64,000 nucleotides of DNA from an uncultured Planctomycetia bacterium (GCA_964634935.1 CAZWJT010000003.1:52323-116322), one strand, 5' to 3'. Shown: positions 19,817 through 56,178, counted from the first letter of the stretch. Translations and numbers: made by a program. Notes: generated by a model not told the origin, from the letters alone.

Positions 19817-19869
19817 ACCCAGAGTTGACACTTAAAATTTAGTGTGTTATAGTAGAAAAAACAATTTCA

Positions 19870-20668: not shown

Positions 20669-22096
20669 ATGCAGTCTCTTCAAAGGCGCTCCGAAGAACA
20701 CAACCGATCTTTAAACTTATTGCTTCTGCTTATTCTCATCGACTCCTTTTTGATTAACATCGCGGAAGTGATCTCATTTGAAATACGGTTTCAGGGCCTA
20801 CTCCCCGAGTATAATTTCGCTGCGTACCAGAACATGATTCTCTTATTAACAGCGACAAGGCTTTCCTGCCTCTACATTTTTCGTGCGTACCACCACATCA
20901 AAACAAAATCAGCGTTCCAATCATTCGTGGAGATTATTAAGGCGAATACGCTCAGTTCCCTGCTCATTATTGTTGCTGCTTTTTTCTTCGGAAACTTCTC
21001 CTATCCGCGTATCGTCATCGTCTATTCTTGGGTTATTACGACTATCTCTTTGTTCGGTTTACGCATCTTGATCCGCAAAGTTACCGCCGCTTTCTTCAAA
21101 ACGGATTATTTCTTTTCAAAAATGATTATCATCGGCACGAATAAAGAGGCCCAGCGTTTGGGCTTGAATCTTATACAGGACAGCTATGAGCAAATTAAGA
21201 TCGTAGGTTTTATAGCGCTCAACGGCGATGATGTCGCCACTCAAGAAGTACTTTTGAACAATTTCCGGATTTTGGGAAAACTCGATCACATCGAGGATAT
21301 TGTGCGGGATATTAACATCGATGAAATTATCGTTGCTGATCGGAGAATCACGGATCGCCAACTGACATTTCTCTTAAGCCGAGTGAACAAGTATGGAATT
21401 GCCGTACGGATTATTCCGAGTCTCTATGAGATGCTTATTGGCGCTACGGTCCGGCATAATGTTGCTATTCCGCTTGTCAAGCTTACTCTTGAGCCGCTTC
21501 GAGGATGGTATCCGGGATTTAAACGTTTGGCAGATGTACTTTTGGCAATTATTGGGCTTCTTGTTTGTTCGCCGATTTTGCTTCTTGCTTTTTTCGCGCT
21601 CAAGCTCGAAAATATGCCTTCGTCCGCACTGTTTAAGCAGGTTCGGGTTGGTCTCGACGGAAAGGAGTTCGTTCTCTATAAATTAAGGACGATGGTTGAT
21701 GATGCCGAGGAAAAGACCGGACCTGTCTGGGCGGAAAAGAATGATCCGCGAGTTACCCGGGTGGGGAGGCTTCTCCGTATCTCACGGATTGATGAATTAC
21801 CTCAATTGATTAACATTCTGCGCGGAGAAATGAGCCTTATAGGACCTCGGCCTGAGCGGCCATTTTTTATCAAGGAGTTGATCGAAAAGATTCCTTGTTA
21901 CGCCGAGCGGTTTAACGTTAAACCAGGTATTACCGGATGGGCCCAGGTTAACTTTAAGTATGCGTCGAGCATTGCTGATAATCAGGAAAAACTCTTATAC
22001 GACCTTTACTATATCCAAAATATGTCGCCAACCCTTGATTTCTTTATCTTTCTGCGTACCTTGGGTCTTATTTTTGGCAGAATAGAAGTTCATTAA
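20669..22096 (+). CDS. polyprenyl-phosphate sugar-1-phosphate transferase (bacterial sugar transferase, WbaP/PglC large type)
   Basis: N-terminal TM bundle, central Rossmann-like domain, C-terminal LKLRTM...PQLINILRGEMSLIGPRPERP sugar-transferase signature. Confidence 0.8.
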   Translation: MQSLQRRSEEHNRSLNLLLLLILIDSFLINIAEVISFEIRFQGLLPEYNFAAYQNMILLLTATRLSCLYIFRAYHHIKTKSAFQSFVEIIKANTLSSLLIIVAAFFFGNFSYPRIVIVYSWVITTISLFGLRILIRKVTAAFFKTDYFFSKMIIIGTNKEAQRLGLNLIQDSYEQIKIVGFIALNGDDVATQEVLLNNFRILGKLDHIEDIVRDINIDEIIVADRRITDRQLTFLLSRVNKYGIAVRIIPSLYEMLIGATVRHNVAIPLVKLTLEPLRGWYPGFKRLADVLLAIIGLLVCSPILLLAFFALKLENMPSSALFKQVRVGLDGKEFVLYKLRTMVDDAEEKTGPVWAEKNDPRVTRVGRLLRISRIDELPQLINILRGEMSLIGPRPERPFFIKELIEKIPCYAERFNVKPGITGWAQVNFKYASSIADNQEKLLYDLYYIQNMSPTLDFFIFLRTLGLIFGRIEVH

Positions 22097-22429: not shown

Positions 22430-22798
22430 ATGGATGAAAGGAGGAAGTTTAGACGGGTAGAGTGTAACGCAAGAGGTCGAGCGGAAAATCTTGAGCAAGG
22501 AATTGAATTTGGAATTGTTACCCGCGATATAACCCCTGAAGGAGTGCGCCTTGTTACTGACTATGGACCAAAAATCGGCGATGTACTTGACTTAAAAATC
22601 ACTATTAACGGAAGCACTGTTCAGTGTACGGCAAAGGTCGTATGGATTGATCATGATCCTTCCCATAATAATCGTGAACGTTTCCAGTGCGGTTTGTCTA
22701 TCACTCACATCCCTTACCGTGATTGGTCTGAGATGATCCATTTTTATAGCAAACAAGTTGGACAGCAGTATTTTTCGAACAATTTTTTACCTTCCTAG
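22430..22798 (+). CDS. stand-alone PilZ-domain protein
   Basis: RRKFRRVE (RxxxR) and TRDITPEGVRL (DxSxxG-like) motifs. Confidence 0.6.
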   Translation: MDERRKFRRVECNARGRAENLEQGIEFGIVTRDITPEGVRLVTDYGPKIGDVLDLKITINGSTVQCTAKVVWIDHDPSHNNRERFQCGLSITHIPYRDWSEMIHFYSKQVGQQYFSNNFLPS

Positions 22799-22887: not shown

Positions 22888-24060
22888 ATGGAAATCAAGT
22901 TTTGCGATTTACAAAAACAGCACACTCTTTTACGCTCACAGATTGACCAGCGTCTTCAAAAAGTCATTGCTCATACCCAATTCATCAATGGGCCGGAGAT
23001 CGGCGAGCTTGAAGAGAAGTTAAGGGCTTTTTTAGGGGTAAAACACGCGGTATGTGTTTCATCTGGCACGGACGCGCTTTTTTTAAGCTTGCTTGCTCTC
23101 CAGGTACAGCCCGGCGATTTTGTCATCACCACTCCGTTTACCTTTGTTGCGACCGCTGAAGTGATTTCTCTTCTGGGAGCTTATCCTGTTTTTGTTGATA
23201 TCGAGCCTGATACTTTTAATATTTCGCCGGATAAACTTGAACAATTTCTCAAGTTCCCGAAGCTTCCTTGCATAAAAGGGGCGATTTCTCGAGAAAAGAT
23301 AAAAGCCGTTATAGCCGTAGACCTTTTTGGCCAGTGTGCCGATTATGACCAAATTCTGCAGACAGCCAAACACTATGGGCTTTTGGTGATTGAAGACGGC
23401 GCTCAATCGTTCGGCGCACTCTATAAAGAGAGTAAATCCTGCACGCTCGGGGATATAAGCTGTACCTCATTTTTTCCGGCCAAGCCTTTGGGGTGTTTTG
23501 GCGACGGAGGAGCACTATTCACCAATAATGACCCATGGGCAGAGAGGCTTAAGCTTCTACGCAACCACGGGCAGGAAAAACGTTACAACCATTCGTGCAT
23601 TGGGCTGAATGCCCGCCTGGATACGTTGCAGGCGGCAGTATTGCTTGCTAAGTTCGAAACTTTTCTTTCTCAAGAAACAAAGCTCCGTCAGTCTCTTGCT
23701 GAAAAATACTGCACAGAGCTTGCTCCTTTGGCAAGGCAAGGTTTCCTCGCGCTTCCGGTCGTTAAGCCGTTCAACCGTTCCATCTGGGCGCAGTTTTCGA
23801 TATGCACGGAAGGATCGAGAGACTTGCTGAAAGATTTTTTGCAATCAAAAGGGGTGCCTACGGCCGTACATTATCCAAAACCGTTGCATCTCCAAGATGC
23901 TTTCGCCTATCTTGGTTATACAGCGGGAGATTTTCCTGTTGCTGAAGCTGTCGCGCGGAAAATTATCAGTCTTCCATTTCATCCATATCTCAGCGACGAT
24001 GATTTTGGGTATATCTGTTTGCAGCTCAAGAATCATTATTCTCAAGGCAGTTTGCAGTAA
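22888..24060 (+). CDS. DegT/DnrJ/EryC1/StrS-family PLP-dependent sugar aminotransferase
   Basis: FINGPEIGELE, SSGTDAL, DLFGQ and FFPAKPLGCFGDGGA (Schiff-base Lys region) typical of DegT family. Confidence 0.8.
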   Translation: MEIKFCDLQKQHTLLRSQIDQRLQKVIAHTQFINGPEIGELEEKLRAFLGVKHAVCVSSGTDALFLSLLALQVQPGDFVITTPFTFVATAEVISLLGAYPVFVDIEPDTFNISPDKLEQFLKFPKLPCIKGAISREKIKAVIAVDLFGQCADYDQILQTAKHYGLLVIEDGAQSFGALYKESKSCTLGDISCTSFFPAKPLGCFGDGGALFTNNDPWAERLKLLRNHGQEKRYNHSCIGLNARLDTLQAAVLLAKFETFLSQETKLRQSLAEKYCTELAPLARQGFLALPVVKPFNRSIWAQFSICTEGSRDLLKDFLQSKGVPTAVHYPKPLHLQDAFAYLGYTAGDFPVAEAVARKIISLPFHPYLSDDDFGYICLQLKNHYSQGSLQ

Positions 24061-24094
24061 GCATAGATAAGAGAAAAGGGAGGTGCTGTGCGCC

Positions 24095-25399
24095 ATGAAC
24101 ACTCGTCAGGACGATGATTTTTTGGATATCAGCGTTTTTCTTAAGTTTCTTCTCCGGCAAAAAATTGCCATAGCCGTAACTTGTGCCCTGGTTCTTCTCC
24201 TGGCCCTTCCGGGAATTCTGTTTGAGGAGAAACTGTATCAAGCGCAAGCGTCAATCATGATTATTCCTTCCAAGCTCACTTCAGTATTTTCCCCAACGAA
24301 TATCGTTCTTCAAGCTGACCAGAAGGCGAGTGGAGAGTACGTTGGTCCCAGGCCAACGATTTCAATCTCTTCCCATAAAGAACTTTTGAAATCATCAGTA
24401 GTGTTAGACCGCCTCTTAAAGCGCTGTTTCCAGAGAGAAGAACAAGCAAAAACAAAAGCTTCACCGGCTGTCATACCGGGAAATTTCTCGATACGAGAAA
24501 TACCCGATACGAACATTCTTTTGCTTCAGGTACAATCATCAACCCCGGCAAAAGCCCAGGAGGCAGCCAACGCTTGGGCGGAGATTTACGTGCAGTACAG
24601 TCAAGAGCTCATTGCTGGAGAGATTAAAGGAACGGGTGATTTTATCCAGGAACAGTTTGAATTTACCCAAAAAGAGCTTGTCCATGCCGAGGAGCAGGTG
24701 AAAGAATTTCAAGAACGGAATAAAATAGATATCGCGCAGGCGGATCTTGATCTGAAAAAGTCAAAATATAACGATTATAAAAAGATGTTGATCGAGCTCG
24801 ACGCAGATATCAAAGCGAAAGAGAATCAACTGCAACAATTGAAAAAAGAGATCGCATCACAACCGAAATTTATTGTAGTTTCAAAAGCCATTACCGATGA
24901 CGCCCTCTGGCAATCGGTCTCTAAGAAGGCAGACTTAGGGGCGCTTGCAAATCGTAAACTGCAGAGTGAGATACTTAACCCTATCTATAGCGACCTTGCA
25001 TCTCGAATTGTAAATACAGAAATAGAACTCAACACCTTGCGTCCCAAGATGGAATATATCAGGCGGTTACAGCAGCAAACTAGAAGAGAGATTGACGGGT
25101 TATCGATGGTAATCAGCCAATACCAATTTGAGTTAAAACAATTAAACCGGCAAGTTGAGATTGTGCAGAAAGCTTATAACAATCTTTCAGCGAGAATAGA
25201 AGATACTAAATTTGTGAATTCTGCACAACTTGGAGAAGTGCGTATTGTTTCTCCGGCGACGCTTCCTCAAAATCCAATGAGCGTTTCACGGAAAGCAACA
25301 TTTCTGCAGTATGCTGTGTTGGGAATCATATGCGGCATAGTCATTGCGTTCTTGAAAGAAGCGTTTGAGCGGTACGTAAAAAAGAGAGTTTCCATATAG
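24095..25399 (+). CDS. polysaccharide chain-length determinant (Wzz/GumC-like) protein
   Basis: N-terminal TM, long coiled-coil periplasmic region, C-terminal TM (LQYAVLGIICGIVIAF); AAAGGGAGG RBS before ATG 24095. Confidence 0.55.
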   Translation: MNTRQDDDFLDISVFLKFLLRQKIAIAVTCALVLLLALPGILFEEKLYQAQASIMIIPSKLTSVFSPTNIVLQADQKASGEYVGPRPTISISSHKELLKSSVVLDRLLKRCFQREEQAKTKASPAVIPGNFSIREIPDTNILLLQVQSSTPAKAQEAANAWAEIYVQYSQELIAGEIKGTGDFIQEQFEFTQKELVHAEEQVKEFQERNKIDIAQADLDLKKSKYNDYKKMLIELDADIKAKENQLQQLKKEIASQPKFIVVSKAITDDALWQSVSKKADLGALANRKLQSEILNPIYSDLASRIVNTEIELNTLRPKMEYIRRLQQQTRREIDGLSMVISQYQFELKQLNRQVEIVQKAYNNLSARIEDTKFVNSAQLGEVRIVSPATLPQNPMSVSRKATFLQYAVLGIICGIVIAFLKEAFERYVKKRVSI

Positions 25400-25453
25400 T
25401 GCGGCGCAGTAGAACAAAATAAGATACGTTTGGTTTGTCAATGGGTGGATAGC

Positions 25454-26437
25454 GTGAAACCATACAAAGTTCTCGTCATAGGATGTGGTTCGATTGGAAC
25501 GCGGCATGCGCGTATTCTGAAAAGCATTGTTCCCTGTATTATTTTCGCTTTTCGTCCCGTTCTTCACAGGTCCCGCGCTCATTTTGCAGAGGGAATTTTG
25601 AGTGATTGGGGTAGGGTGCAAAAGGAAAAGATAGATTTTGCGGTTATTGCTAATCCTTCAGCGTTACATATGCGACCAGCATTATCGCTTGCCCAGCTCG
25701 GGATCCCTTTTTTGATTGAAAAACCAGTTTCCACCAGCTTAGAGCATACCAAAAAGTTAGCGGATGCCGTTCATTCGAAGCAAATCCCGGTTCTGGTTGG
25801 TTTTAATCTGCGTTACCATATACTGTATCGAAAATTGAAGCACCTCATCGCATCGAAAACGCTCGGCATACCCCTCTTTTTTTCCGCAGAGACAGGATAT
25901 TTTTTGCCATATTGGCGGAACGACGATTATCGGAAAAGTTATTCTGCCCAGAAACTTCTTGGGGGCGGGGTCATTTTTGATCTTACCCATGAACTGGATA
26001 TGGCGGTTGATTTATTCGGTCCAGTCAGTGCAGTTAGCTGTATGAAAGGAAAAATCTCCAATTTACAAATTCAGACAGAAGATATTGCCGAAATCAGTTT
26101 GCGGCATAAGAATAAAAGATTTTCGCACATTCATGTTGATTATCTCCAGAAAAAGTACACCCGGCGGTTTAAGGTGGTTTGCGAACGGGGAGAGATTGTG
26201 TGGGATTATGCACAGGGATGCATTAATGTTTTTCGCGGGAAAACAACAGGCACGGTGGCACAGCCTGCGGATTATCATCGAGATGAAACATTTTATCGAC
26301 AGGCGAAACACTGGCTTTCTGTTTTTCGGGGAAAGGAAGACCCCGAATGCTCTTTGGCTCAAGGAATTTATGTGTCTGCTGTTGCCATCGCGGCTCATCG
26401 TTCGGCAGAGCAGAAAAAATGGGTAACGGTGTCATGA
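25454..26437 (+). CDS. Gfo/Idh/MocA-family oxidoreductase
   Basis: KVLVIGCGSIGTRHA N-terminal Rossmann motif; probable GTG start at 25454 (ORF-track TTG 25430). Confidence 0.65.
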   Translation: MKPYKVLVIGCGSIGTRHARILKSIVPCIIFAFRPVLHRSRAHFAEGILSDWGRVQKEKIDFAVIANPSALHMRPALSLAQLGIPFLIEKPVSTSLEHTKKLADAVHSKQIPVLVGFNLRYHILYRKLKHLIASKTLGIPLFFSAETGYFLPYWRNDDYRKSYSAQKLLGGGVIFDLTHELDMAVDLFGPVSAVSCMKGKISNLQIQTEDIAEISLRHKNKRFSHIHVDYLQKKYTRRFKVVCERGEIVWDYAQGCINVFRGKTTGTVAQPADYHRDETFYRQAKHWLSVFRGKEDPECSLAQGIYVSAVAIAAHRSAEQKKWVTVS

Positions 26438-27138
26438 TAGAAAAAAAACAGATAATCCTTGGAGTTATTCCTGCCCGGGCCGGTTCAAAGGGGATTAAGA
26501 ATAAAAATTTGCAGAGCATCGCAAATGTACCCTTGATCGCTTATACCATCAGACAAGCATTGCGGTATGCAGGTATCGATAGAGTTATTGTCACAACAGA
26601 CAGCAAGAAGATTGCTTTGGTTGCGGTTCGATATGGGGCGGCGGTTCCTTTTCTCCGTCCAAAACAACTGGGTCGCGATCGAACCCCCATGCTTGCTGTA
26701 CTAAAGCATGCTTTGGTTGAGTGCGAGAAATTCTATGCTTGTCGGGTAAAGGGGGTTGTCCTGCTTGATCCAACAAGCCCCGTGCGCGAACCAAAAGAGA
26801 TGGAGACAATGATAAAAATGTTTGTGCGGCATCAACCGGATTTGCTCGTTGCTGTGACACCAAGTAGACGCAGTCCGTATTTTAATATGCTTGTTAAAGA
26901 AACGAACGGGTATGCGCGGCTGATTTCCAAAAAGAAATTTTTCCGGAGGCAGGACGCGCCTCGGGCTTTTGATATTACCAATACCTGTTGGATCTTTTCC
27001 CGGAAAGCGATTCTTCTTAGGCAAAGAATTCCACGGAGAACAGCAGTGTATGAAATAAAAAATCCTTATATTGATATTGATAGAAAAGCGGATCTTGAAC
27101 GGTTCCGGCAGTATCTCGATTCAGGGAGAATACAATGA
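26434..27138 (+). CDS. acylneuraminate (nonulosonate) cytidylyltransferase, NeuA/LegF-like
   Basis: IILGVIPARAGSKGIKNKNL N-terminal motif of CMP-sialate synthetase family; ATGA-coupled start 26434. Confidence 0.8.
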   Translation: MIEKKQIILGVIPARAGSKGIKNKNLQSIANVPLIAYTIRQALRYAGIDRVIVTTDSKKIALVAVRYGAAVPFLRPKQLGRDRTPMLAVLKHALVECEKFYACRVKGVVLLDPTSPVREPKEMETMIKMFVRHQPDLLVAVTPSRRSPYFNMLVKETNGYARLISKKKFFRRQDAPRAFDITNTCWIFSRKAILLRQRIPRRTAVYEIKNPYIDIDRKADLERFRQYLDSGRIQ

Positions 27139-27983
27139 AAAGAGGATCGTCCGTAAAACCACTTATTTCTGTCACAGACTGTTTTTCATTGGCTGGGAAG
27201 AATATCGTTGTTTTTGGCGGCGGCGGGAAAATGGCAGAATCTTTTTCTCGGACTTTTCTTGAAGCCGGCTGCCGAAAACTGATTTTGGTGGACACAGATT
27301 CCCATCGTTTGTTCATGATTCAAGACAGCTTGGCAAAGAGATTTCCCGGAAGTTCCGTGGAGATCTTTCAGGCAGACGTTACCCAAAAGACCGCTGCCAA
27401 AAAAATCGCCTCTTTTCTCCGAACCAAAATCCGCCTGATCGATATATGTGTCTACGCGGTGATGAACAAGCCGCCTCATTACTACGCCCCCTGCGAGGAT
27501 TATTCTCAGAAAACGTGGGACACGGCGCTCTCGGGAAATTTGAGCGGAGCCTTTTTCCTCGTTCAAAAACTCTTGAATTATTTTGCGAATTCATCCAGCA
27601 TTATTTTTATCAGTTCAATTTATGGGATCATTGCTCCAGATTTGCGTATCTATAAAGGGATTCGAGGTAATATCTACGGCGGAAAATATCCACTTACTGT
27701 ACCGCCGGTCTATTCAGCCTCAAAATCTGGCCTGATCGGATTAGGAAAATATTTGGCAGTGTTGCTTTCCGAGCGTAATATACGCGTGAACATATTGGTG
27801 CCGGGAGGAGTGTATGATGGGCAATCTCACAAGTTCTATAAACGCTACGCAGATAGGGTTCCTTTGCGCCGGATGGCGCATTGGTCTGATTATAACGGCC
27901 CGATGCTTTTTCTGGCTTCGGACGCCTCGCGTTATATGACGGGACAACTTTTAATCGTCGATGGTGGTTTAAGTGTCTGGTAA
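27135..27983 (+). CDS. SDR-family oxidoreductase
   Basis: VVFGGGGKMA Rossmann-like motif and YSASK catalytic YxxxK. Confidence 0.65.
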   Translation: MKRGSSVKPLISVTDCFSLAGKNIVVFGGGGKMAESFSRTFLEAGCRKLILVDTDSHRLFMIQDSLAKRFPGSSVEIFQADVTQKTAAKKIASFLRTKIRLIDICVYAVMNKPPHYYAPCEDYSQKTWDTALSGNLSGAFFLVQKLLNYFANSSSIIFISSIYGIIAPDLRIYKGIRGNIYGGKYPLTVPPVYSASKSGLIGLGKYLAVLLSERNIRVNILVPGGVYDGQSHKFYKRYADRVPLRRMAHWSDYNGPMLFLASDASRYMTGQLLIVDGGLSVW

Positions 27984-29049
27984 AAGGAGTCGCCGCATGG
28001 GGCGAAAAGCGAAATCAAGAAAGTCAGAATTTTCTATCGAAAGGCGTAGGATCGGAGAAAATTTTCCGCCTTTCGTGATCGCTGAGGTTGGGATTAACCA
28101 CGAAGGAGATTATAAAAAAGCATTACGTCTTATTGATGCCGCTGTTTGGGCTAAGGCAGATTGCGTCAAATTTCAATGCCATATTACCGATAAAGAAATG
28201 ATTCCTACCGATATGAAACCCGGGAAGATTTCTTCGGAACGCCTCTGGGATATCATACGGCGATGTGAATTGGACGAAGATACAGAAGAAAGGCTCAAAA
28301 AGTATTGTGAAAAGAAAAAGATTATGTACCTTTCTACCCCGTTTTCCCGAGAAGCGGCAGACCGTCTGGATAAACTAGGGGTGAGCGGGTTTAAGATTGG
28401 TTCGGGAGAATGCAACAACTTTCCGCTTGTAGAACATATCGCTCAGAAGAGAAAACCAGTTATTCTTTCAACTGGGATGAACACGGTAGCTTCAATTATG
28501 CAAAGTGTAAAGATCTTGCGATACTTCAAAGTTCCTTTTTTGCTCATGCATTGTGTTTCTCGGTATCCCACGCCTTATCAAGACTTGCGTCTGGGAGCAA
28601 TTCAAGAACTGCAGGATATATTCCGTGTCCCTGTGGGCTTAAGCGACCATTCACACGGTATCTACACATGTTTAGGCGCCGTTGCTTTGGGCGCTTGTGC
28701 GCTCGAAAAACATTTTACTATTACCCGTTCCTGGCCTGGCCCGGACATTCCTCTTTCTATCGAGCCACACGAACTGCAACAATTGGTCATTGGCTCGCGG
28801 GCTGTCTGGCAAGCGCTTGGAGGACATAAGGGTATTCAGAAAGAGGAAAAACCGGTGATCGATTTTGCCTATGCTTCGGTTGTCACGATACGGAAGATTC
28901 AGCAAGGCGAACCGCTCACCTTGGATAATATCTGGGTAAAAAGGCCTGGTACTGGAGATTTCTTGGCCAAAGATTTTTCTCGGATTCTTGGAAGGAAAGC
29001 AAGGCGTCACCTTGAAGAGTCTGTGCAACTCAAGAAGGGCGATGTCTGA
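27973..29049 (+). CDS. nonulosonic acid synthase (NeuB/LegI/PseI family) with C-terminal SAF domain
   Basis: FVIAEVGINHEGD, KFQ, KIGSGE NeuB motifs plus about 70 aa C-terminal antifreeze-like SAF domain. Confidence 0.85.
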   Translation: MSGKRSRRMGRKAKSRKSEFSIERRRIGENFPPFVIAEVGINHEGDYKKALRLIDAAVWAKADCVKFQCHITDKEMIPTDMKPGKISSERLWDIIRRCELDEDTEERLKKYCEKKKIMYLSTPFSREAADRLDKLGVSGFKIGSGECNNFPLVEHIAQKRKPVILSTGMNTVASIMQSVKILRYFKVPFLLMHCVSRYPTPYQDLRLGAIQELQDIFRVPVGLSDHSHGIYTCLGAVALGACALEKHFTITRSWPGPDIPLSIEPHELQQLVIGSRAVWQALGGHKGIQKEEKPVIDFAYASVVTIRKIQQGEPLTLDNIWVKRPGTGDFLAKDFSRILGRKARRHLEESVQLKKGDV

Positions 29050-29959
29050 CAGAACCTGTGTAGTCATTACTGGCAGTTCTGGTTTTCTCGGCCGGAATTT
29101 TATAGATGAATTAATGAGGAGTTCAGATATCGGCATTTTGGCTCTTGACCAAGTCAATAACCTTCCGGTTACGAATCGTAGCGTGCAATATTTCCGGTGT
29201 GATCTTCTCTCTTCCGGGGATATTTCTAACGTTCTTGATTTTCTTCGCAAATCTCAATATAAAGAAATTTATCTCGTCCATCTTGCTGCCGTTACTCATT
29301 CCTCCTGTTACAGCGAGAAAGAGTTGCGTGAGATGAATGTGCGGTTACTGCAAAATACATTGGCGCTTGCATCCCTCAAAGAGGTAAAGAAGTTCGTCTT
29401 TTCTTCATCCGCCCTTGTTTATGGGACAAAGTATCCAGAATGTATTACTGAAGATTTTGCTCTTGCGCCAGAAAATGCATATGCGCAAGCCAAGCGGGAC
29501 TGCGAAGAATATATCCTCGGAAAAAGCGTGAACTTTCCCCAGAGTATCATTCTGCGGTTTACGAATATTTATGGATTAGGCATGAGTCCCTCCAGTGTAA
29601 TTGCCACAGTTGAAAAACAACTACGGAATAACGAGCTTGCTTTACGTGAATATATGAGTGTTCGGGATTTTCTTTACATCCAAGATGCTATTGCTGCGTT
29701 GCGGTTGTCAGTCTTTTCAGCTTGTTCCTTTCAGATATATAATGTTGGTACTGCGCAAGGTCATTCAATTTATGAGCTTGTAAAACTCATGGCTGGACTG
29801 ACAGGCAAACAAAATTTATTTGGCGCTATCCAGAAACCCCTGCAGCATCATGAGAAACTGGTTGTTTCTCATGATCGTATTACTCATGATCTGCGTTGGA
29901 TGCCAGAATATTCCTTGGAACAGGGATTGCAAAAAATGGTACATTCCGCATATGCCTAG
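29042..29959 (+). CDS. NAD-dependent sugar epimerase/dehydratase-family protein
   Basis: VVITGSSGFLGRNF and YAQAK; ATG 29042 overlaps NeuB stop. Confidence 0.7.
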   Translation: MSDRTCVVITGSSGFLGRNFIDELMRSSDIGILALDQVNNLPVTNRSVQYFRCDLLSSGDISNVLDFLRKSQYKEIYLVHLAAVTHSSCYSEKELREMNVRLLQNTLALASLKEVKKFVFSSSALVYGTKYPECITEDFALAPENAYAQAKRDCEEYILGKSVNFPQSIILRFTNIYGLGMSPSSVIATVEKQLRNNELALREYMSVRDFLYIQDAIAALRLSVFSACSFQIYNVGTAQGHSIYELVKLMAGLTGKQNLFGAIQKPLQHHEKLVVSHDRITHDLRWMPEYSLEQGLQKMVHSAYA

Positions 29960-31139
29960 ACGAAAGATAGCAATTTTTACTGGTAACCGCGCTGAGTATG
30001 GGTTGCAATTTCCGATTATCAAAGCGATTTCTCAGAGCAGCAGATTACGTTATTTTCTGTTAGTTTCCGGGGCGCATCTTGATGAAAAATTCGGGTATAC
30101 CAAGCGCGAGATAGAAAAAGATGGATTTTTGGTATATCGTGAAGTACGGGCAGAAGTAAGGGCTGATGATCTTTATTCAGCTACCCAAGCAGTCGGGCAG
30201 ATTATTTTAAGTTTGAGCCGAGTTCTTGCCGAAATCAAGCCGGATATACTCATTGTTTATGCGGATCGTTTTGAAGGATTAGCTGCGGTCGTTGCAGGCA
30301 GCCAGATGGGCATTCCTGTTGCGCATATCGAAGGAGGGGATATTACTGAGGGGGGGGCGCTCGATGATTACGTGAGACATGCGATGACCAAGCTTTCACA
30401 TCTGCATTTTACGACAAACATCCAAGCGGCAGAGCGAATCGCTCGATTAGGAGAAGAAAAATGGAGGATTTTCAATGTGGGTTTTCCGGTAATTGACCTT
30501 ATTCGTCAGAAAAAATTTGCCGCTCCCCAAGAAATTACTGAACGATTTTCCATTATTCCAGAAAAGCCAACAGTACTTTTTACCCAGCATTCAGTTACCA
30601 CAGAACTTGACCAAGTCACCCAACAAATAAGGCCTTCCCTGGATGCGCTTTGTTTCTGGGCACAGAAAGGAATTCAAGTGGTGATAACGTATCCGAATAA
30701 TGATGCCGGTGGCAGGCGCATTATCCATGAGTTAGAAGGGCTTAAGAGGAAAAATATCCCTACGCTCAAAATATATCCACATTTGGGACGTTATTATTAT
30801 CATGGTATACTATATCTCTGCGGTAAAGAAGGCCTTGGGGTTTGTGTCGGTAATTCTTCGAGCGGGATAAAAGAAACCCCGGCATTTGGCTGTCCGTTTG
30901 TTAATATTGGAAGCCGGCAGCAAGGGCGGTTACGTTCGACAAATGTACTTGATGTGGCGTATAGCTCTGCACAGATTAGAAAAGCAATCGGGAAAAGCAT
31001 TTTCGATAAAGAATTTCGTAAAAACTGTGCTCGGTGTAAAAATCCATACGGTACGGGGCATGCTGGAGAGAAAATAACCAACGTGCTGGCGCAGATTTCT
31101 TTAGGCAGGCGATTATTGCAGAAGAAGATTACCTACTAA
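29952..31139 (+). CDS. UDP/GDP-N-acetylglucosamine 2-epimerase (hydrolysing), NeuC/LegG-like
   Basis: KIAIFTGNRAEYGL start, HIEGGD, NIGSRQQGR motifs of NeuC family; start moved to ATG 29952. Confidence 0.8.
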   Translation: MPRRKIAIFTGNRAEYGLQFPIIKAISQSSRLRYFLLVSGAHLDEKFGYTKREIEKDGFLVYREVRAEVRADDLYSATQAVGQIILSLSRVLAEIKPDILIVYADRFEGLAAVVAGSQMGIPVAHIEGGDITEGGALDDYVRHAMTKLSHLHFTTNIQAAERIARLGEEKWRIFNVGFPVIDLIRQKKFAAPQEITERFSIIPEKPTVLFTQHSVTTELDQVTQQIRPSLDALCFWAQKGIQVVITYPNNDAGGRRIIHELEGLKRKNIPTLKIYPHLGRYYYHGILYLCGKEGLGVCVGNSSSGIKETPAFGCPFVNIGSRQQGRLRSTNVLDVAYSSAQIRKAIGKSIFDKEFRKNCARCKNPYGTGHAGEKITNVLAQISLGRRLLQKKITY

Positions 31140-31143
31140 CTCC

Positions 31144-32214
31144 ATGATTCGGATAGAAAAGATTGCGAAATTTATTGTGCGTGAAGATGCTTCTTTACGG
31201 GAAGCCCTCAGGGTCATTGACCAAAATAAAGAAGGGATTGTTCTTGTGGTTGACGCAAAAAACCGTCTCTGTGGGATTATTACTGATGGCGATGTCCGTC
31301 GGTTTATCTTAAAGAACGGGGATATTTCCACGCGGTGTGATACGATTATGAACAAAGAGTACTTTTATAGTACGCATGGTTCGCCCGAAGAAGCGAAAAA
31401 ACTCATGACCCGGCAAAGGATTCGTCATATACCTTATCTGGGTAAAGATAAAAAACTACTTTCACTCTTTATTTCCGATACGATTTATGAATTAAAAGAA
31501 AGCGTAGCCGCCGTGGTGATGGCGGGCGGGGAAGGTGCCAGAGTGCGTGAAATTTCGCAAGGCATTCCTAAGCCGCTGCTGAAAATTAAAGAAAAACCAA
31601 TTCTTGAAGAGGTTTTACTTGGCTTCAAACGGCATCATATCAATCGAATCTTTCTTGCGCTCAACTATCGGGCCAAAGACTTCAAAGATTATTTCCGCGA
31701 TGGGTCATCGCTCGGTTTAGATATTACCTATCTTGAAGAAAAGAAAAAGCTTGGAACAGCAGGGGCTCTTTCGCTGTTACCGAAAGCGTTACCCTATGAA
31801 ACCCTTTTAGTGATGAACGCAGATGTGCTGACTGCAACGAATCTCACAAGTCTTATCCAGTTTTATCGCGACCACCATCTTTTAATGTGTGTTGCGGCCA
31901 AGGAGTATGTTTTTGATATTCCTTTCGGAATTTTTGAAGTAGCGAATGGGCACCTCGTGGGTTTAAAAGAAAAACCTTCTGAGCGGTTTTTTTGTAATGC
32001 AGGTATCTATGTGCTGGATAAACAGGTTCTTGAGTTTATCCCAAAAAATAAACGATATGACATGACAGATTTAATCAAGTTGCTTCTGGGGAAATCGTTA
32101 CCCATTGGTGCTTTCCCGCTCTACGAGTATTGGATTGATATCGGCAACAAGGGAGATTTCCACCGCGCGGGAAATGAATATGACAAAATTTTTAAACGCC
32201 GGGAATATGAGTAA
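31144..32214 (+). CDS. CBS-domain-containing sugar-phosphate nucleotidyltransferase (PtmE-like)
   Basis: Two N-terminal CBS repeats followed by AVVMAGGEGARVREISQGIPKPLL nucleotidyltransferase motif. Confidence 0.75.
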   Translation: MIRIEKIAKFIVREDASLREALRVIDQNKEGIVLVVDAKNRLCGIITDGDVRRFILKNGDISTRCDTIMNKEYFYSTHGSPEEAKKLMTRQRIRHIPYLGKDKKLLSLFISDTIYELKESVAAVVMAGGEGARVREISQGIPKPLLKIKEKPILEEVLLGFKRHHINRIFLALNYRAKDFKDYFRDGSSLGLDITYLEEKKKLGTAGALSLLPKALPYETLLVMNADVLTATNLTSLIQFYRDHHLLMCVAAKEYVFDIPFGIFEVANGHLVGLKEKPSERFFCNAGIYVLDKQVLEFIPKNKRYDMTDLIKLLLGKSLPIGAFPLYEYWIDIGNKGDFHRAGNEYDKIFKRREYE

Positions 32215-33205
32215 CTTTTGGAAAAAAAAGAAAGTTTTTGTTACCGGAGCGGATGGATTTATCGGCTCGCATCTTGTTGAGCGGCTCGTCCAGAATGGTG
32301 CTTCTGTGCGTGCTTTTGTTTTGTATAATTCATTTGGTAACTGGGGTTGGCTGGAATCTTTCCAAAAAAGATGTCTTCAGAAAATTGATGTTTATCCTGG
32401 AGACGTTCGCGACGCAGCTTCACTGGATAAGGCCCTCGGCGGTTCAGAGATCGTTTTCCATCTCGCAAGCTTAATCGCGATTCCTTATAGTTATTCTGCT
32501 CCGGAAAGTTACCTCGATACGAATGTCAAGGGAACTCTGAATATCCTGCAAGCGGTTCGTAAACACGGAGTGCGGCGGGTTATCCATACGTCGACGAGCG
32601 AAGTATATGGGACTGCGCAGTACGTGCCGATTGATGAGCAGCATCCGCTGAATCCCCAGTCTCCCTATGCAGCATCCAAGAGCGCCGCTGACGCGCTTGC
32701 GTTGAGTTTTTATCATTCTTTTGGTGTCCCGGTAGTCATTGCGCGGCCATTCAATACTTTTGGTCCCAGACAATCAGCGCGCGCTGTTATTCCCGCAATT
32801 ATTTCCCAGATTTACGCTGGGAAGAAAACAATTGAACTTGGAAGCCTTGCTCCTACCCGGGATTTCAATTATATTGCTAATACGGTTGATGCGTTTCTCG
32901 CCTTGGGAGAGGCGTCGGCTGGTTTTGGCGAGGTATTCAATATCGGGAGCGGGGGAGAGATATCGATAGGCACCCTTGTATCTCTCATTCAAAATATTAC
33001 CGGTTCCAGAGTCAATATACGTCAGACAAATATGCGCAAGCGCCCTGTGGCGAGTGAAGTCCAGCGCTTGCTTTGTAATGCTGACAAGATAAAAAACTAT
33101 TGCGGTTGGCAGCCAGAGGTGGCGCTCAAAGAAGGACTTACGCGTACCTGCAAGTGGATTCAGCAGAATAGAGAGAAGTTTAAACCGGAAATTTACCATA
33201 CATGA
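32207..33205 (+). CDS. NAD-dependent nucleotide-sugar dehydratase/epimerase
   Basis: VFVTGADGFIGSHL, YAASK; ATG 32207 overlaps previous stop. Confidence 0.75.
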   Translation: MSNFWKKKKVFVTGADGFIGSHLVERLVQNGASVRAFVLYNSFGNWGWLESFQKRCLQKIDVYPGDVRDAASLDKALGGSEIVFHLASLIAIPYSYSAPESYLDTNVKGTLNILQAVRKHGVRRVIHTSTSEVYGTAQYVPIDEQHPLNPQSPYAASKSAADALALSFYHSFGVPVVIARPFNTFGPRQSARAVIPAIISQIYAGKKTIELGSLAPTRDFNYIANTVDAFLALGEASAGFGEVFNIGSGGEISIGTLVSLIQNITGSRVNIRQTNMRKRPVASEVQRLLCNADKIKNYCGWQPEVALKEGLTRTCKWIQQNREKFKPEIYHT

Positions 33206-34758
33206 ACGCGATTATTTTTACTCAATCGGGAACATTGCGCATGTTTTATCCTTTAGCCCTCCGTTTACAACGGGAGAAAGTTCTTGATACGGTTGGTTTT
33301 TATGTAACCAATTCGCTGTATTTCGAGAATTTTTCGCGCGATAATCCAGAGTTTTTGCAGTTTCCGCTACTCAAGGAATGGGAAATTATTCGACACGGGA
33401 AAAGTAAGAAAGTGGATGTAAAGACGCTGCGTATGTATGAGAAGAAATACGGCGATCCTTTCTTGGCAAGCGCCATTGTTGCTGACCGGCGTTTGTATTT
33501 AGGAAAATTCAATAATCTTTACCACGATGAGAAACAAACGTTTACTGATGGTGAACGTATGGGTATCTTGCAGGAATCGCTCGAGCGCCTTGAATCTTTT
33601 TTTGACCAGATAAAACCAAATTTCATATTGAGTTTTATCTGTGTTACCATCGGAGAATACTTAGGTTATAGGATTGCGGCCCAAAGGAAAATCCAGTTTC
33701 TCAATCTTCGTCCTACTCGAATCAAGAATTACATCTACGCAGCAGACACTATTTATGAACCGCCCGCTTCATTCTCGGCTGGGTATGAACGTTTTCGCCT
33801 GAGTGATTGCGCGGTTGAGGTAAAAAAAGAGGCCGAGGATTTTATGAGAGAATTTCAAGTACGAGAAACATTGTATGAAGGAGTAAGTGGTTCCCAGGGC
33901 AAGCCAAAAAGAAGAAAACGATGGTTTCGCGGTCTCAAGAATAAATTCTTGGGATGCGCGCGGCTTTTGAGGAAAGAATTTCATTACCGCTTGGGAAGAT
34001 ACCAGAGCGATACCCACGTGAAAGGATTTATTTTCCCCGCGCTCTATAAGAATATTTTCGTTCCTTTGAGGATATGTAAGATTCACTCTCTCTTGAAAGA
34101 CCGCTATATTCAGGAAGAAAATCTTGCGGATAATCAGTATGCATTTTATCCTTTGCATAAAGAACCCGAAGTAACTCTGCAAGTTTATAATCGGTATTAT
34201 TTGAACCAGATAGAAGTGATCCGGAATATCGCCCAAAGTCTGCCTTGTGGCATGAGGCTATTTGTAAAAGAACATCCTGTGAGCGTCGGGTATCGCGATA
34301 GCGGCTATTATCAAAAGATTCTGTCGATTCCCAACGTTTCTCTTATTCATCCGCAGGTAAAGAGCAGAATCGTCATTGAAAATGCGCAGCTTGTAGTCGT
34401 GCTCGGCGGTACTGTCGGGTTTGAAGCTTTGCTTTTGAAGAAACCGGTTATTGTTTTGGGGAATGCGCTCTATGGATTAATGCGCACTTCCTCGTTACGA
34501 AAAGTAGAGTCCCCAACCGCTTTAAGCAGCGCCATAGTATCACTTTTGGAAACATACCAATATGACCAGCAAGAACTCCTGCGTTACATTTGTTATATCA
34601 TGCATCATGCTACGAGGGTTGATCTCTATGCAAGATTATTGCACAGAAGCGATGCTGCCGCCCCCGACAATAATGAGAACTTTGCAGAACAGATCCAACG
34701 TTTGGCCGGTTACCTTACAGGCAAACTATTGGGGAATAAAGTTTTTATCGGTGGATAG
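33202..34758 (+). CDS. capsule-polysaccharide-biosynthesis (KpsS/KpsC-type) family transferase
   Basis: C-terminal half (YPLHKEPE...LFVKEHP...VVVLGGTVGFEALLLKKPVIVLG) resembles the Capsule_synth family of beta-Kdo transferases. Confidence 0.55.
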   Translation: MNAIIFTQSGTLRMFYPLALRLQREKVLDTVGFYVTNSLYFENFSRDNPEFLQFPLLKEWEIIRHGKSKKVDVKTLRMYEKKYGDPFLASAIVADRRLYLGKFNNLYHDEKQTFTDGERMGILQESLERLESFFDQIKPNFILSFICVTIGEYLGYRIAAQRKIQFLNLRPTRIKNYIYAADTIYEPPASFSAGYERFRLSDCAVEVKKEAEDFMREFQVRETLYEGVSGSQGKPKRRKRWFRGLKNKFLGCARLLRKEFHYRLGRYQSDTHVKGFIFPALYKNIFVPLRICKIHSLLKDRYIQEENLADNQYAFYPLHKEPEVTLQVYNRYYLNQIEVIRNIAQSLPCGMRLFVKEHPVSVGYRDSGYYQKILSIPNVSLIHPQVKSRIVIENAQLVVVLGGTVGFEALLLKKPVIVLGNALYGLMRTSSLRKVESPTALSSAIVSLLETYQYDQQELLRYICYIMHHATRVDLYARLLHRSDAAAPDNNENFAEQIQRLAGYLTGKLLGNKVFIGG

Positions 34759-34765
34759 AGTATCT

Positions 34766-35941
34766 ATGAAAAAGATAGCGATAGTAGTAACATCACGAGC
34801 GAGCTACGCGCGCATCAAGAGCGTGCTCGCAGCGATTAGGGAAAACAAAGATCTCGAGCTTTTTTTAATCGGAGCCGCGTCACTCATACTCGATAAATAC
34901 GGAAATGCTGCGGAGATTGTTGAGCGAGACGGTTTTACTATTCATCAGAAGGTGTATTTGATTATCGAAGGAGAAAACCCCACGACTATGGCAAAAAGCG
35001 TTGGAGTTGGGGTGATGGAGCTTGCTACACTTTTCGACAATGTGAAGCCAAACATTGTTATTTCAATCGCTGACCGGTTCGAAACTATCTGTACCGCTAT
35101 TGCCGCGGCTTATCTCAATATTCCAGTTGCTCACATCCAGGGTGGAGAGCTTTCAGGATCGATTGATGAAAAAGTGCGCCATGCCGTCACAAAATTTTCT
35201 TCCGCCCATTTCGTTGCCAATCAAACAGCCAAACGAAGATTGCAGATGATGGGAGAAGCGGAAAATTCAATATTTATCACCGGTTGTCCCTCGATAGATT
35301 TAGCAAAAGACATACAGAAGAAGCATGCGTATATGACAACGGACTATTTATTTTCAAAGTATGGCGGTTTAGGCGACCAGGTGAATATCGCGGATAATTT
35401 TGTTGTTGTTCTGCAACATCCGGTTACCACGGAAGTTGCGGATGGCTACGAGCAAATGAATCAGACCTTGTACGCGGTGCAGCAAACAGGAATTCCTGCT
35501 ATTATCCTTTGGCCAAACGTTGATGCTGGTTCTGATGCAGTATCCAAGGCAATCCGTAGTTTCCGCGAGCGTGTAAAGCCAAGAAACATGCATTTTTTCA
35601 GGAATCTTACTCCTGAAGATTTTCTTGCCCTCCTGATGCAATCAAGCTGTCTTCTGGGAAATTCCTCGGTGGGAATACGTGAATGTTCTTTCTTGGGTGT
35701 TCCGGTTATCAACATTGGGAGTCGCCAGAGAGACCGCGAGCGAGGCCCGAATGTGATTGATGTGGAGCATAATAAAGATGAGATCATCGAAGCCTTGAAG
35801 AAACAGTTACTCTGCCGAAAGCCGTATTCCCCAGCGTTCATCTATGGAGAGGGTTGCGCCGGGAAAAAGATTGCGCAGATTTTAGCTACTCAAGATTTCG
35901 CAATTGAAAAAAGATTCGTTGATCATATCTGCGGAGAATGA
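34766..35941 (+). CDS. nucleotide-GlcNAc 2-epimerase (hydrolysing), second NeuC-like copy
   Basis: KIAIVVTSRASYARIKSVL, HIQGGE, NIGSRQRDR; start moved to ATG 34766. Confidence 0.8.
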   Translation: MKKIAIVVTSRASYARIKSVLAAIRENKDLELFLIGAASLILDKYGNAAEIVERDGFTIHQKVYLIIEGENPTTMAKSVGVGVMELATLFDNVKPNIVISIADRFETICTAIAAAYLNIPVAHIQGGELSGSIDEKVRHAVTKFSSAHFVANQTAKRRLQMMGEAENSIFITGCPSIDLAKDIQKKHAYMTTDYLFSKYGGLGDQVNIADNFVVVLQHPVTTEVADGYEQMNQTLYAVQQTGIPAIILWPNVDAGSDAVSKAIRSFRERVKPRNMHFFRNLTPEDFLALLMQSSCLLGNSSVGIRECSFLGVPVINIGSRQRDRERGPNVIDVEHNKDEIIEALKKQLLCRKPYSPAFIYGEGCAGKKIAQILATQDFAIEKRFVDHICGE

Positions 35942-35988
35942 CCAAGTTGGCACGAGGTTTTACGGGTAAGGAGATTTTCTAATACAAT

Positions 35989-36720
35989 ATGCAAATTCCC
36001 AAAAATATTCTTGCGATTATCCCGGCGCGCAAAGGCTCAAGAGGTTTGAAGGATAAAAATCTGTCTTTACTGGATAAGCATCCTTTGGTTGTCCATACCT
36101 TTGCTGCAGCAAGATCCTCAAAGTTGCTTACCAGGATGATTATGTCAACCGACGATTGTCGCATCGCTCAATTGGCATTACGACATGGGATAGAAGTTCC
36201 GTTTCTTCGCCCCAAATATCTGGCGTCTGACCGGGCAAAAAGCACAGATGTGGCGTTGCACGCGCTTATGCATGTGCAAAAGCATGAAGATTATTCTCCG
36301 GATCTGATTGTTTTGCTTCAGCCAACAGCACCGCTACGCACAGGAGCGCACATTGATGACGCAATACGGAAATTATGCGCACGCCGGGGCGATTCACTAG
36401 TCAGTCTTTGCAGATTATCCGAGCCGCACCCCTATAAGCTGAAACGCTTGAAAAACGGATTTGTTGTTCCATTCTTGACAGGAACCGACAGCACCGTCCC
36501 TCGCCAGCAGTTGCCAGAGGTGTACCGGCTGAATGGCGCAATTTATATTGTTACCCGCGAGGTTTTGCTCAAAGAGAAAAGTTTTTTTGGCACAAGAGTA
36601 ATCCCGTATTTTATGGAGGAAGATTTTTCCGTGAACATTGATTCCGGTTTTGATTTGCTTCTTGCTGAGGCAATATTAAAAAAAAGAAAGCAACGCCATG
36701 GAAAAAGCGTTTCGGTGTGA
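35989..36720 (+). CDS. nonulosonate cytidylyltransferase, second NeuA-like copy
   Basis: ILAIIPARKGSRGLKDKNL motif. Confidence 0.8.
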   Translation: MQIPKNILAIIPARKGSRGLKDKNLSLLDKHPLVVHTFAAARSSKLLTRMIMSTDDCRIAQLALRHGIEVPFLRPKYLASDRAKSTDVALHALMHVQKHEDYSPDLIVLLQPTAPLRTGAHIDDAIRKLCARRGDSLVSLCRLSEPHPYKLKRLKNGFVVPFLTGTDSTVPRQQLPEVYRLNGAIYIVTREVLLKEKSFFGTRVIPYFMEEDFSVNIDSGFDLLLAEAILKKRKQRHGKSVSV

Positions 36721-37531: not shown

Positions 37532-37533
37532 CT

Positions 37534-46588: not shown

Positions 46589-46589
46589 T

Positions 46590-49185: not shown

Positions 49186-49195
49186 GAGGTATAAG

Positions 49196-49963: not shown

Positions 49964-49974
49964 TAATCTGCTCT

Positions 49975-51913: not shown

Positions 51914-52014
51914 GCGAACCCGATTTTCAGCCTAAAAAAACACTATCTCCAAGTAAACAGCTAGCGTATAATATATGATACTGAGTAAATGATATTTTTG
52001 AAGGAGTGGAGGAT

Positions 52015-53759: not shown

Positions 53760-53768
53760 GGAGAAATC

Positions 53769-55471: not shown

Positions 55472-55484
55472 TTTGGTAATTCCC

Positions 55485-56174: not shown

Positions 56175-56178
56175 TTTC

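Follow-up and report, generated by a model that had tools for sequence, protein, structure and literature searches.

What sugar is made by a gene cluster that resembles a legionaminic acid pathway in some of its parts and a sialic acid pathway in others? The question is raised by a 64,000-nucleotide stretch of DNA from an uncultured Planctomycetia bacterium (GCA_964634935.1 CAZWJT010000003.1:52323-116322; "the window" hereafter means this whole stretch), in which positions 22888 to 33205 had been interpreted, from the sequence alone, as a nonulosonic acid pathway resembling the guanosine diphosphate (GDP)-linked legionaminic acid (ptm/leg) route. Our comparisons suggest that this interpretation is only partly right. 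A front end of the Leg/Ptm type is joined here to a synthase that groups with the N-acetylneuraminic acid (Neu5Ac) synthase of Neisseria meningitidis, no homologues of LegC or LegH are found in the window, and the same combination recurs in other uncultured bacteria. We propose tentatively, with a confidence that falls just short of an even chance, that the cassette makes a cytidine monophosphate (CMP)-activated 9-deoxy nonulosonic acid without a 7-acetamido group.

Gene content and limits of the cassette

Gene boundaries come from publicly available calls for a contig of identical sequence (Logan SRR12133403), and families were assigned by hidden Markov model (HMM) scans with Pfam and NCBIfam. 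The calls place the start of a DegT aminotransferase gene at 22888 and the stop of a dehydratase gene at 33205, which are exactly the ends of the interval first described. The nine enzyme families listed for it (DegT, Gfo/Idh/MocA, CMP-transferase, two short-chain dehydrogenase/reductase [SDR]-type proteins, NeuB, NeuC, nucleotidyltransferase, and 4,6-dehydratase) are all present on the + strand with strong HMM scores. That list left out a tenth, Wzz-like gene and the continuation of the gene run into a Capsule_synth gene, so that the locus reads as follows:

22888-24060, + strand, DegT aminotransferase (PF01041, 338.6 bits)
24095-25399, + strand, GNVR/Wzz-like chain-length determinant, PEP-CTERM ChnLen-like (PF13807 GNVR, 39.3 bits; TIGR03007, 81.5 bits, under cutoff)
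25445-26437, + strand, Gfo/Idh/MocA oxidoreductase, "Gfo" (PF01408, PF02894, PF22725)
26434-27138, + strand, CMP-nonulosonate synthetase of the CTP_transf_3 family, "cytidylyltransferase" (PF02348, 76.2 bits; PseF model, 119 bits, cutoff 205.7)
27135-27983, + strand, classical SDR (PF13561, 120.5 bits)
27997-29049, + strand, NeuB-type synthase with SAF domain, "NeuB1" (PF03102, 261.6 bits; TIGR03569, 365 bits, cutoff 399.65)
29042-29959, + strand, extended SDR, "Epi" (PF01370, 91 bits; no specific NCBIfam family)
29952-31139, + strand, hydrolyzing nucleoside diphosphate (NDP)-N-acetylhexosamine (HexNAc) 2-epimerase of the NeuC/LegG type, Epimerase_2, "NeuC1" (TIGR03568, 376 bits, cutoff 235.9)
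31144-32214, + strand, CBS-domain sugar-1-phosphate nucleotidyltransferase (PF00571 and PF00483)
32207-33205, + strand, NAD-dependent NDP-N-acetylglucosamine (GlcNAc) 4,6-dehydratase of the LegB family (TIGR04180, 470.1 bits, cutoff 475)
33202-34758, + strand, Capsule_synth protein, KpsC/KpsS-like (PF05159, 44.6 bits, cutoff 20)

From the Gfo start (25445) to the Capsule_synth stop (34758), neighboring genes overlap by 4 to 8 bp or sit 4 to 14 bp apart, with 4-bp overlaps between the Gfo stop and the cytidylyltransferase start and between the LegB stop and the Capsule_synth start. Since this packing runs from Gfo to Capsule_synth, the functional unit is 25445-34758 rather than 22888-33205. Judged by its gene packing, it is one translationally coupled cassette within a large exopolysaccharide locus. 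We regard the cytidylyltransferase, NeuB1, NeuC1, the CBS-nucleotidyltransferase, LegB, and Capsule_synth as its core members, and Gfo, the classical SDR, and the extended SDR as accessory. DegT is separated from the cassette by the Wzz-like gene, and a gene of this kind also lies directly upstream of the cassette in a Planctomycetota locus (L171, see below).

The synthase groups with a Neu5Ac synthase

Related loci, numbered with the prefix L, were collected by an alignment-based LegB scan of species-representative genomes, which gave 80 loci whose open reading frames (ORFs) were clustered, and by a synthase-alignment scan of metagenomes, which added 80 more. The first interpretation had likened the gene set, synthase included, to the legionaminic one. 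NeuB1 is 46.3% identical to N. meningitidis NeuB (NmNeuB) and on average 36.8% identical (range, 32.8 to 40.3%) to 27 synthases from loci with LegB, LegC, and LegH. Its closest match in the PDB was NmNeuB (333 bits), with 151 bits for PseI. In a neighbor-joining tree of 75 synthases, the NeuB1 clade (296/300 bootstraps) was sister to NmNeuB (299/300) and separate from the synthases of loci carrying LegB, LegC, and LegH. Grouping with a true sialic acid synthase is an outcome that the sequence-only reading had itself named as speaking against its proposal. More than 100 environmental homologues share 65 to 73% identity with NeuB1.

According to a published structural comparison, C4-C6 of the substrate are recognized by positions 70 to 85 of NmNeuB. 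In this loop the NeuB1 clade shares P72, G73, R85, and C86 with NmNeuB at sites where the canonical LegI differs; G131 and F288, outside the loop, are also common to NeuB1 and NmNeuB. The clade has loop changes of its own, namely, an invariant two-residue deletion and K74, S75, E77, L79, and W80. These residues fit, rather than prove, the use of a substrate that would be similar but not identical to N-acetylmannosamine (ManNAc). Two published discriminator positions of NeuB (132 and 184) did not transfer cleanly to our context-defined sets and were not used as evidence. As for a pseudaminic acid route, the PseI model gave 243 bits with NeuB1 (cutoff, 340), the PseB model gave 60 bits with the dehydratase, and no PseG or PseH families were found.

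The window lacks LegC and LegH homologues

In the first reading, the DegT protein was listed alongside a ptm/leg set in which LegC is the aminotransferase. It scored 198 bits with the LegC model TIGR04181, against a cutoff of 420, and 222 bits with the PseC model, against a cutoff of 423. The best PDB match was WbpE (3NYU, 345 bits), followed by QdtB and DesV, with only 83 to 89 bits for PglE and PseC. We take WbpE, QdtB, and DesV to be C3-aminotransferases and PglE and PseC to be C4 enzymes. Identity to the LegCs of canonical loci was 27 to 38%, with a single exception (45% in L032). DegT is the only member of its family found in the 64 kb and lies outside the coupled operon. The syntenic cassettes L084, L086, L087, L088, L169, and L171 encode no equivalent of it. 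It is a neighbor of the WbpE/QdtB (C3) type and probably does not belong to the nonulosonic acid cassette.

Two side observations concern this protein. At 345 bits it is about as near to Pseudomonas aeruginosa WbpE as orthologues usually are. No 3-dehydrogenase of the WbpB/WlbA type and no acetyltransferase of the WbpD type is visible in the 64 kb; DegT may work with the Gfo oxidoreductase at 25445.

The earlier remark that a LegH-like hexapeptide acetyltransferase was not seen holds for the entire window. None of the 31 NeuD/PglD-like acetyltransferases from canonical LegB loci found a match in it (tblastn, E < 1e-3), and the hexapeptide family was absent from Pfam scans of 0 to 11 kb and 11 to 63 kb. 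Because DegT is not LegC-like and the window has no LegH, there are no identifiable enzymes here for 7-amination and N-acetylation, which are what distinguishes a legionaminic sugar.

A Leg/Ptm-like front end

The likeness to the ptm/leg route was borne out for the front end. The LegB protein falls 5 bits short of the TIGR04180 cutoff and keeps the dehydratase motif STSEVYG. It is 53 to 63% identical to the LegBs of both canonical loci, where LegC is adjacent, and cassette loci. Its relatives number in the thousands, several of them named LegB by NCBI; the closest are 64 to 66% identical, and the best in the species-representative genome scan is 60% identical. Since cassette and canonical LegBs intermix in a neighbor-joining tree, the front end is an ordinary one, and the idea that cassette LegBs form a distinct subfamily was rejected.

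The CBS-nucleotidyltransferase shares its family with nucleotidyltransferases encoded in 55 LegB loci and has the domain architecture found in canonical LegB loci, which is PtmE-like. Its best models were the N-terminal domain of archaeal GlmU, mannose-1-phosphate guanylyltransferase, and HddC, and specificity for GDP is not readable from its sequence. For NeuC1 the best PDB match was the Acinetobacter baumannii GDP/uridine diphosphate (UDP)-di-N-acetylbacillosamine (diNAcBac) 2-epimerase 5XVS (LegG; 220 bits), with 176 bits for human GNE. NeuC1 is 54 to 70% identical to its cassette orthologues and 30 to 42% identical to the LegG of canonical loci.

As a side observation, L004, L014, L026, L028, L030, L040, and L047 combine LegB (55 to 60% identity) with a CBS-type nucleotidyltransferase, and neither NeuB nor NeuC lies within 10 kb. 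Because such loci exist, the LegB front end evidently also serves sugars other than nonulosonic acids.

Recurrence of the cassette

Uncultured Omnitrophota, Planctomycetota, Elusimicrobia, and Deltaproteobacteria carry the same cassette. The 80 loci of the LegB scan define the canonical neighborhood: LegB was found in 76, a DegT directly after it in 55, NeuC in 56, NeuB in 53, a CBS-nucleotidyltransferase in 55, a cytidylyltransferase in 34, and a NeuD/PglD-like acetyltransferase in 31. Only one of them was syntenic with the window (L005, from a Deltaproteobacteria metagenome-assembled genome [MAG]), and it has no DegT. The LegC-type aminotransferase and LegH, encoded in 55/76 and 31/76 of the loci fetched with LegB, were found in 3/22 and 1/22 of the cassettes of the window type. 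LegC-like genes occur within or next to the cassettes of L097, L170, and perhaps L110, and a LegH-like gene only in that of L110, so 19 of the 22 cassettes have no linked aminotransferase. Representative gene orders are the following (CMP, cytidylyltransferase; MTase, methyltransferase; NTase, nucleotidyltransferase; the SDR between NeuB and NeuC is the extended one):

L084 / L005, Deltaproteobacteria MAG: Gfo - CMP - SDR - MTase - NeuB - SDR - NeuC - NTase - LegB - Capsule_synth
L086, metagenome: full cassette without the extended SDR after NeuB
L087, MAG: Gfo - CMP - SDR - NeuB - SDR - NeuC - NTase - LegB
L169, Omnitrophota complete genome: CMP - SDR - MTase - NeuB - SDR - NeuC - NTase - LegB - Capsule_synth, with housekeeping flanks
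L171, Planctomycetota: Wzz - CMP - MTase - NeuB - NeuC - NTase - LegB - Capsule_synth; minimal, with no Gfo, SDR, or extended SDR
L170, Elusimicrobia: formyltransferase - LegB - MTase - LegC-like DegT - CMP - NeuB - SDR - NeuC; aminated variant

In the 1.8-Mb Omnitrophota genome CP070807.1, the cassette stands alone as an operon, flanked by housekeeping genes and without an aminotransferase. Synthases with at least about 57 to 59% identity to NeuB1 co-occur with an epimerase of the NeuC1 type (54 to 70%), LegB (48 to 63%), the CBS-nucleotidyltransferase, and Capsule_synth. More distant synthases lie mostly in compact NeuA-NeuB-NeuC loci, and none of the 23 such loci with enough flanking sequence encodes a LegB of at least 48% identity. 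All the cassette proteins of the window are singletons at 90% identity.

Capsule_synth follows the same pattern. Orthologues 36 to 43% identical stand directly after LegB in L084, L086, L088, L091, L098, L169, and L171, and none was found at 35% identity or more in the 23 loci whose synthase is less than 57% identical, most of which are compact NeuA-NeuB-NeuC loci. The Capsule_synth protein is a candidate transferase of the CMP-activated sugar.

The Elusimicrobia locus deserves separate mention as an aminated cassette (MAG JACRDN010000023.1, 4709-13042), which combines a 465-amino-acid LegC-like DegT with a synthase of the NeuB1 type. It probably makes a 7-N-formyl sugar and resembles the Kuenenia cluster of the SugarBase preprint.

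Accessory oxidoreductases

The order of Gfo, CTP_transf_3, and SDR, with overlapping stop and start codons, matches PtmF-LegF-PtmA and ElaA-ElaB-ElaC, as the sequence-only reading had noted for the ptm set; the likeness to PtmF/PtmA (ElaA/ElaC) is at the level of family and synteny only. Gfo has no close solved structure, with 3EZY among its matches. The best PDB match of the cytidylyltransferase is 6IFD (92 bits), and 6UH2 is the only one below 1e-20 for the classical SDR, which scored 156.6 bits with PRK09186 (cutoff, 255) and 96 bits with the PtmA model NF050062 (cutoff, 350). Gfo orthologues 39 to 54% identical hold the same position in L084, L086, L087, and L088 and are absent in L169, L171, and L091. 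In related cassettes the triad is dispensable: neither Gfo nor the SDR is encoded in L171 and L091, and of the two, L169 has only the SDR.

Of the 22 cassettes, 15 have an extended SDR after NeuB; it is absent in the close relatives L086 and L171. These proteins are very divergent and fast evolving (22 to 32% identity to that of the window), and a homologue search with the latter gave five relatives with at most 29% identity, whose contexts (L002, L003) were uninformative. GxxGxxG and YxxxK are conserved in every extended SDR that follows NeuB, and none has the Glu of the LegB motif STSEVYG (SSSALVYG in the window), which makes them epimerases or reductases rather than dehydratases. After strand β2, about half of them carry an acidic residue and about half an RR motif; we infer that their use of NAD and NADP may be mixed.

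Proposed pathway and alternatives

From these families and contexts we infer the following route, in which every chemical step, the nucleotide used, the fate of C4 and C7, and the roles of Gfo and the two SDRs are predictions. The CBS-nucleotidyltransferase would form NDP-GlcNAc, with GDP assumed by analogy with PtmE, and LegB would dehydrate it to NDP-4-keto-6-deoxy-GlcNAc. C4 would be neither transaminated nor N-acetylated; presumably its keto group is reduced, with the extended SDR (29042), the classical SDR, Gfo, and LegB itself as candidates. NeuC1 would remove the nucleotide and invert C2, and NeuB1 could then join the 6-deoxy-HexNAc and phosphoenolpyruvate into a 5-acetamido-3,5,9-trideoxy-non-2-ulosonic acid, a 9-deoxy, 7-hydroxy relative of sialic and legionaminic acid. 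This 9-deoxy sugar would be activated by the cytidylyltransferase. By analogy with the proposal for ElaA/ElaC, Gfo and the SDR may together invert a carbinol in the side chain of the CMP-sugar, and the KpsC/S-like protein would move the sugar onto the polymer.

Several observations weigh against this proposal. Its weakest point is the fate of the 4-keto group, since the minimal cassettes L171 and L091 encode no reductase. The best PDB matches of the extended SDR are 6- and 4-epimerases, not ketoreductases, and since L170 and L097 encode it alongside LegC-like genes, it is no simple substitute for transamination; with its absence in L086 and L171 as well, the idea of a 4-ketoreductase replacing LegC was downgraded. 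NeuC1 did not form a robust clade of its own (bootstrap, 41/200). The synthase tree includes one characterized Neu5Ac synthase, and its canonical LegI set is defined by gene context alone, not by biochemistry. Finally, LegC and LegH could lie beyond the 64-kb window, which is part of a 192-kb NCBI contig, as legH of Campylobacter jejuni is encoded away from the other leg genes.

This last point leads to the first alternative, an ordinary legionaminic (5,7-diamino) pathway with LegC and LegH supplied in trans or with the WbpE-like DegT helped by a housekeeping acetyltransferase. LegB, the CBS-nucleotidyltransferase, NeuC1 (through 5XVS), and the triad of Gfo, CMP-transferase, and SDR are all associated with Leg, DegT lies 1.4 kb upstream of the cassette, and the aminotransferases of L170, L097, and perhaps L110 imply that the NeuB1 clade is not strictly tied to nonaminated substrates. 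However, DegT reaches less than half of the LegC cutoff, falls with the C3-aminotransferases, and is missing from the nearest syntenic cassettes, and no LegH homologue occurs in the 64 kb. Canonical loci place the aminotransferase directly after LegB, while 19 of the 22 cassettes have none linked, and the synthase is only 33 to 40% identical to those of LegB-LegC-LegH loci and groups with NmNeuB. We consider an ordinary legionaminic pathway unlikely but not negligible.

The cassette might also be two interleaved pathways serving the same polymer, in which NeuC1, NeuB1, and the cytidylyltransferase make CMP-Neu5Ac from UDP-GlcNAc, and the nucleotidyltransferase, LegB, and the extended SDR make an NDP-6-deoxy-HexNAc of the N-acetylquinovosamine (QuiNAc) or N-acetylfucosamine (FucNAc) type. 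Both halves are formally complete: NeuC1 exceeds the NeuC cutoff (376 versus 235.9 bits), NeuB1 is sister to a Neu5Ac synthase, and a cytidylyltransferase completes NeuABC, while a nucleotidyltransferase, LegB, and an SDR that is not a dehydratase suffice for the other. Moreover, several genomes (e.g., L004, L014, L026, and L040) have LegB and the CBS-nucleotidyltransferase without NeuB and NeuC. Nevertheless, the subtypes of NeuB1 and NeuC1 covary with LegB and the nucleotidyltransferase (a LegB of at least 48% identity was found in 0/23 loci with a distant synthase), and the genes of the two putative pathways are interleaved and translationally coupled. L171 and L091 keep the nucleotidyltransferase and LegB but have no reductase, which leaves the 6-deoxy-HexNAc branch incomplete there. 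NeuB1 itself stays under the NeuB cutoff (365 versus 399.65 bits) and has the loop changes that are invariant in its clade. We regard this arrangement as improbable, and the small probability left over is assigned to no reading.

Other modules of the polysaccharide locus

The window has a G+C content of about 44%, with nearly all long ORFs on the + strand. Up to about 19.8 kb it carries housekeeping genes (fatty acid synthesis, glycine cleavage, and lipoate), and from about 19.9 kb to past 63 kb it is a single very large surface polysaccharide locus. Two features precede DegT:

20669-22096, polyprenyl glycosylphosphotransferase, which opens the polysaccharide locus (TIGR03025, 387 bits)
22430-22798, stand-alone PilZ-domain protein, between the priming glycosylphosphotransferase and the DegT aminotransferase

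The PilZ protein hints at control of the exopolysaccharide locus by cyclic di-GMP. A promoter and terminator scan of 19.5 to 38.5 kb gave counts equal to the shuffled expectation and no operon boundaries. Its best promoter-like match (19825-19853; 11/12, with an extended -10 TG) lies just upstream of the first ORF of the polysaccharide locus (19870), which is only a hint given that the total of matches equals the shuffled expectation.

Directly after the cassette (34766-39164) lie a second NeuC (TIGR03568, 371 bits), a second cytidylyltransferase, and a short NeuB of 277 amino acids without SAF (TIGR03569, 166 bits), then a methyltransferase and a P-loop (AAA_18-like) protein. L084 and L107 likewise have another NeuB/NeuC set after the cassette, so the polymer may carry two different nine-carbon acids. 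Further on, 40085-41533 encodes a TagF-like protein (Glyphos_transf), which matches the BFO_1060 glycosyltransferase family weakly (47.6 bits; cutoff, 200). In L005 the cassette is followed by a homologue (34% identity), and the TagF-like protein is a second candidate transferase for a CMP-activated sugar.

The block at 43504-51006 looks like one for tailoring an NDP-6-deoxyhexose, with a nucleotidyltransferase, a 4,6-dehydratase-like SDR, a C-methyltransferase (Methyltransf_13/14), an RmlC-like 3,5-epimerase, a reductase/epimerase, a second C-methyltransferase-like protein, a CmcI-type O-methyltransferase, and another methyltransferase, which suggests that the same polymer contains a deoxysugar that is branched or heavily methylated. 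A third CMP-sugar module (52006-57740) encodes an HpcH/HpaI-family aldolase, a methyltransferase, a KdsB-like cytidylyltransferase (PRK13368, 303 bits; cutoff, 255), a D-2-hydroxyacid dehydrogenase, a cyclase-family protein, an extended SDR, and a haloacid dehalogenase (HAD) phosphatase, followed by an ATP-binding cassette (ABC) exporter. Its content looks like that of an aldolase-based pathway leading to a further CMP-activated keto-acid sugar rather than that of standard synthesis of 3-deoxy-D-manno-octulosonic acid (Kdo).

Implications

If the cassette does make a 9-deoxy, nonaminated sugar, it could represent a class that is biosynthetically undescribed: a 5-acetamido-3,5,9-trideoxy sugar with a 7-hydroxy or 7-keto group, assembled through a LegB front end and a synthase of the Neu type, tailored at the CMP level by Gfo and SDR, transferred by a PF05159 protein, and common at the cell surface of uncultured Omnitrophota, Planctomycetota, Elusimicrobia, and Desulfobacterota-like bacteria. 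We hold this broader proposal to be plausible rather than probable. In full-text searches, which do not cover much of the subscription literature, we found no description of a pathway to a 9-deoxy or trideoxy nonulosonic acid or of a LegB cassette without LegC and LegH.

Gene content rules are widely used to predict sialic-acid-like sugars in bacteria. A LegB just under the TIGR04180 cutoff together with a Neu-type synthase would steer annotators to legionaminic or sialic acid, and the evidence suggests that neither is safe. If the proposal is true, it would add a 9-deoxy, nonaminated branch to the Neu/Leg/Pse scheme, provide a testable biosynthetic route to trideoxy nonulosonic acids, and implicate KpsC/S-like proteins in the transfer of such sugars. 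That Gfo, SDR, and extended SDR are present in some and absent from other otherwise identical cassettes also offers a natural experiment on the long-debated enzymes of the PtmF/PtmA type.

Comparison with known systems

The GDP-linked CMP-legionaminic acid pathway of C. jejuni shares with the cassette the CBS-nucleotidyltransferase, LegB, the hydrolyzing 2-epimerase, the PEP (phosphoenolpyruvate)-condensing synthase, the cytidylyltransferase, and the ptmF-legF-ptmA order. It differs in that the window has neither an aminotransferase of LegC grade nor LegH, its synthase groups with the Neu5Ac synthase and not with the LegI clade, an extended SDR stands between synthase and epimerase, and a KpsC/S-like gene is joined to the operon. 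In the window, three defining features of the legionaminic pathway are therefore missing: LegC, LegH, and a synthase of the LegI clade.

The triad is also found in the ElaA-ElaB-ElaC module for 8-epi-legionaminic acid in A. baumannii KL49 and in the nab cluster of Vibrio vulnificus, for which it was proposed that the Gfo enzyme oxidizes and the SDR face-selectively re-reduces C8 of CMP-Leg5,7Ac2 (PMC13656337). Here too, Gfo, CMP-transferase, and classical SDR genes are adjacent, and the window proteins match 3EZY, 6IFD, and 6UH2, which served as molecular replacement models for ElaA, ElaB, and ElaC (PMC13656337). The KL49 module, however, follows a complete lgaA-F legionaminic set, while the window has no LegC or LegH. 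When the ElaABC structures were sought in the PDB copy used, only these search models appeared, so the homology to ElaABC is indirect.

With the SiaA/SiaC/SiaB-type Neu5Ac route of N. meningitidis, the cassette shares a synthase that is 46% identical and falls in the sister group and a NeuC1 above the NeuC equivalog cutoff. Yet the operon has a 4,6-dehydratase and a nucleotidyltransferase of its own, both superfluous for making Neu5Ac. The synthase scores under the NeuB equivalog cutoff (365 versus 399.65 bits), and LegB and the nucleotidyltransferase covary with the synthase subtype, all of which places the cassette outside the Neu5Ac pathway.

A chemical precedent reportedly exists in the structures by Vinogradov of a trideoxy "fusaminic-type" nonulosonic acid of Fusobacterium nucleatum, which is said to be 9-deoxy with nitrogen only at C5. 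This L-gluco sugar is described by its structure only, with no biosynthetic genes assigned, and it is a precedent rather than a homologue. Among the systems compared, the cassette would work like a hybrid, with the front end and Ptm-type triad of the GDP-linked legionaminic acid pathway of C. jejuni and the synthase of the Neu5Ac pathway.

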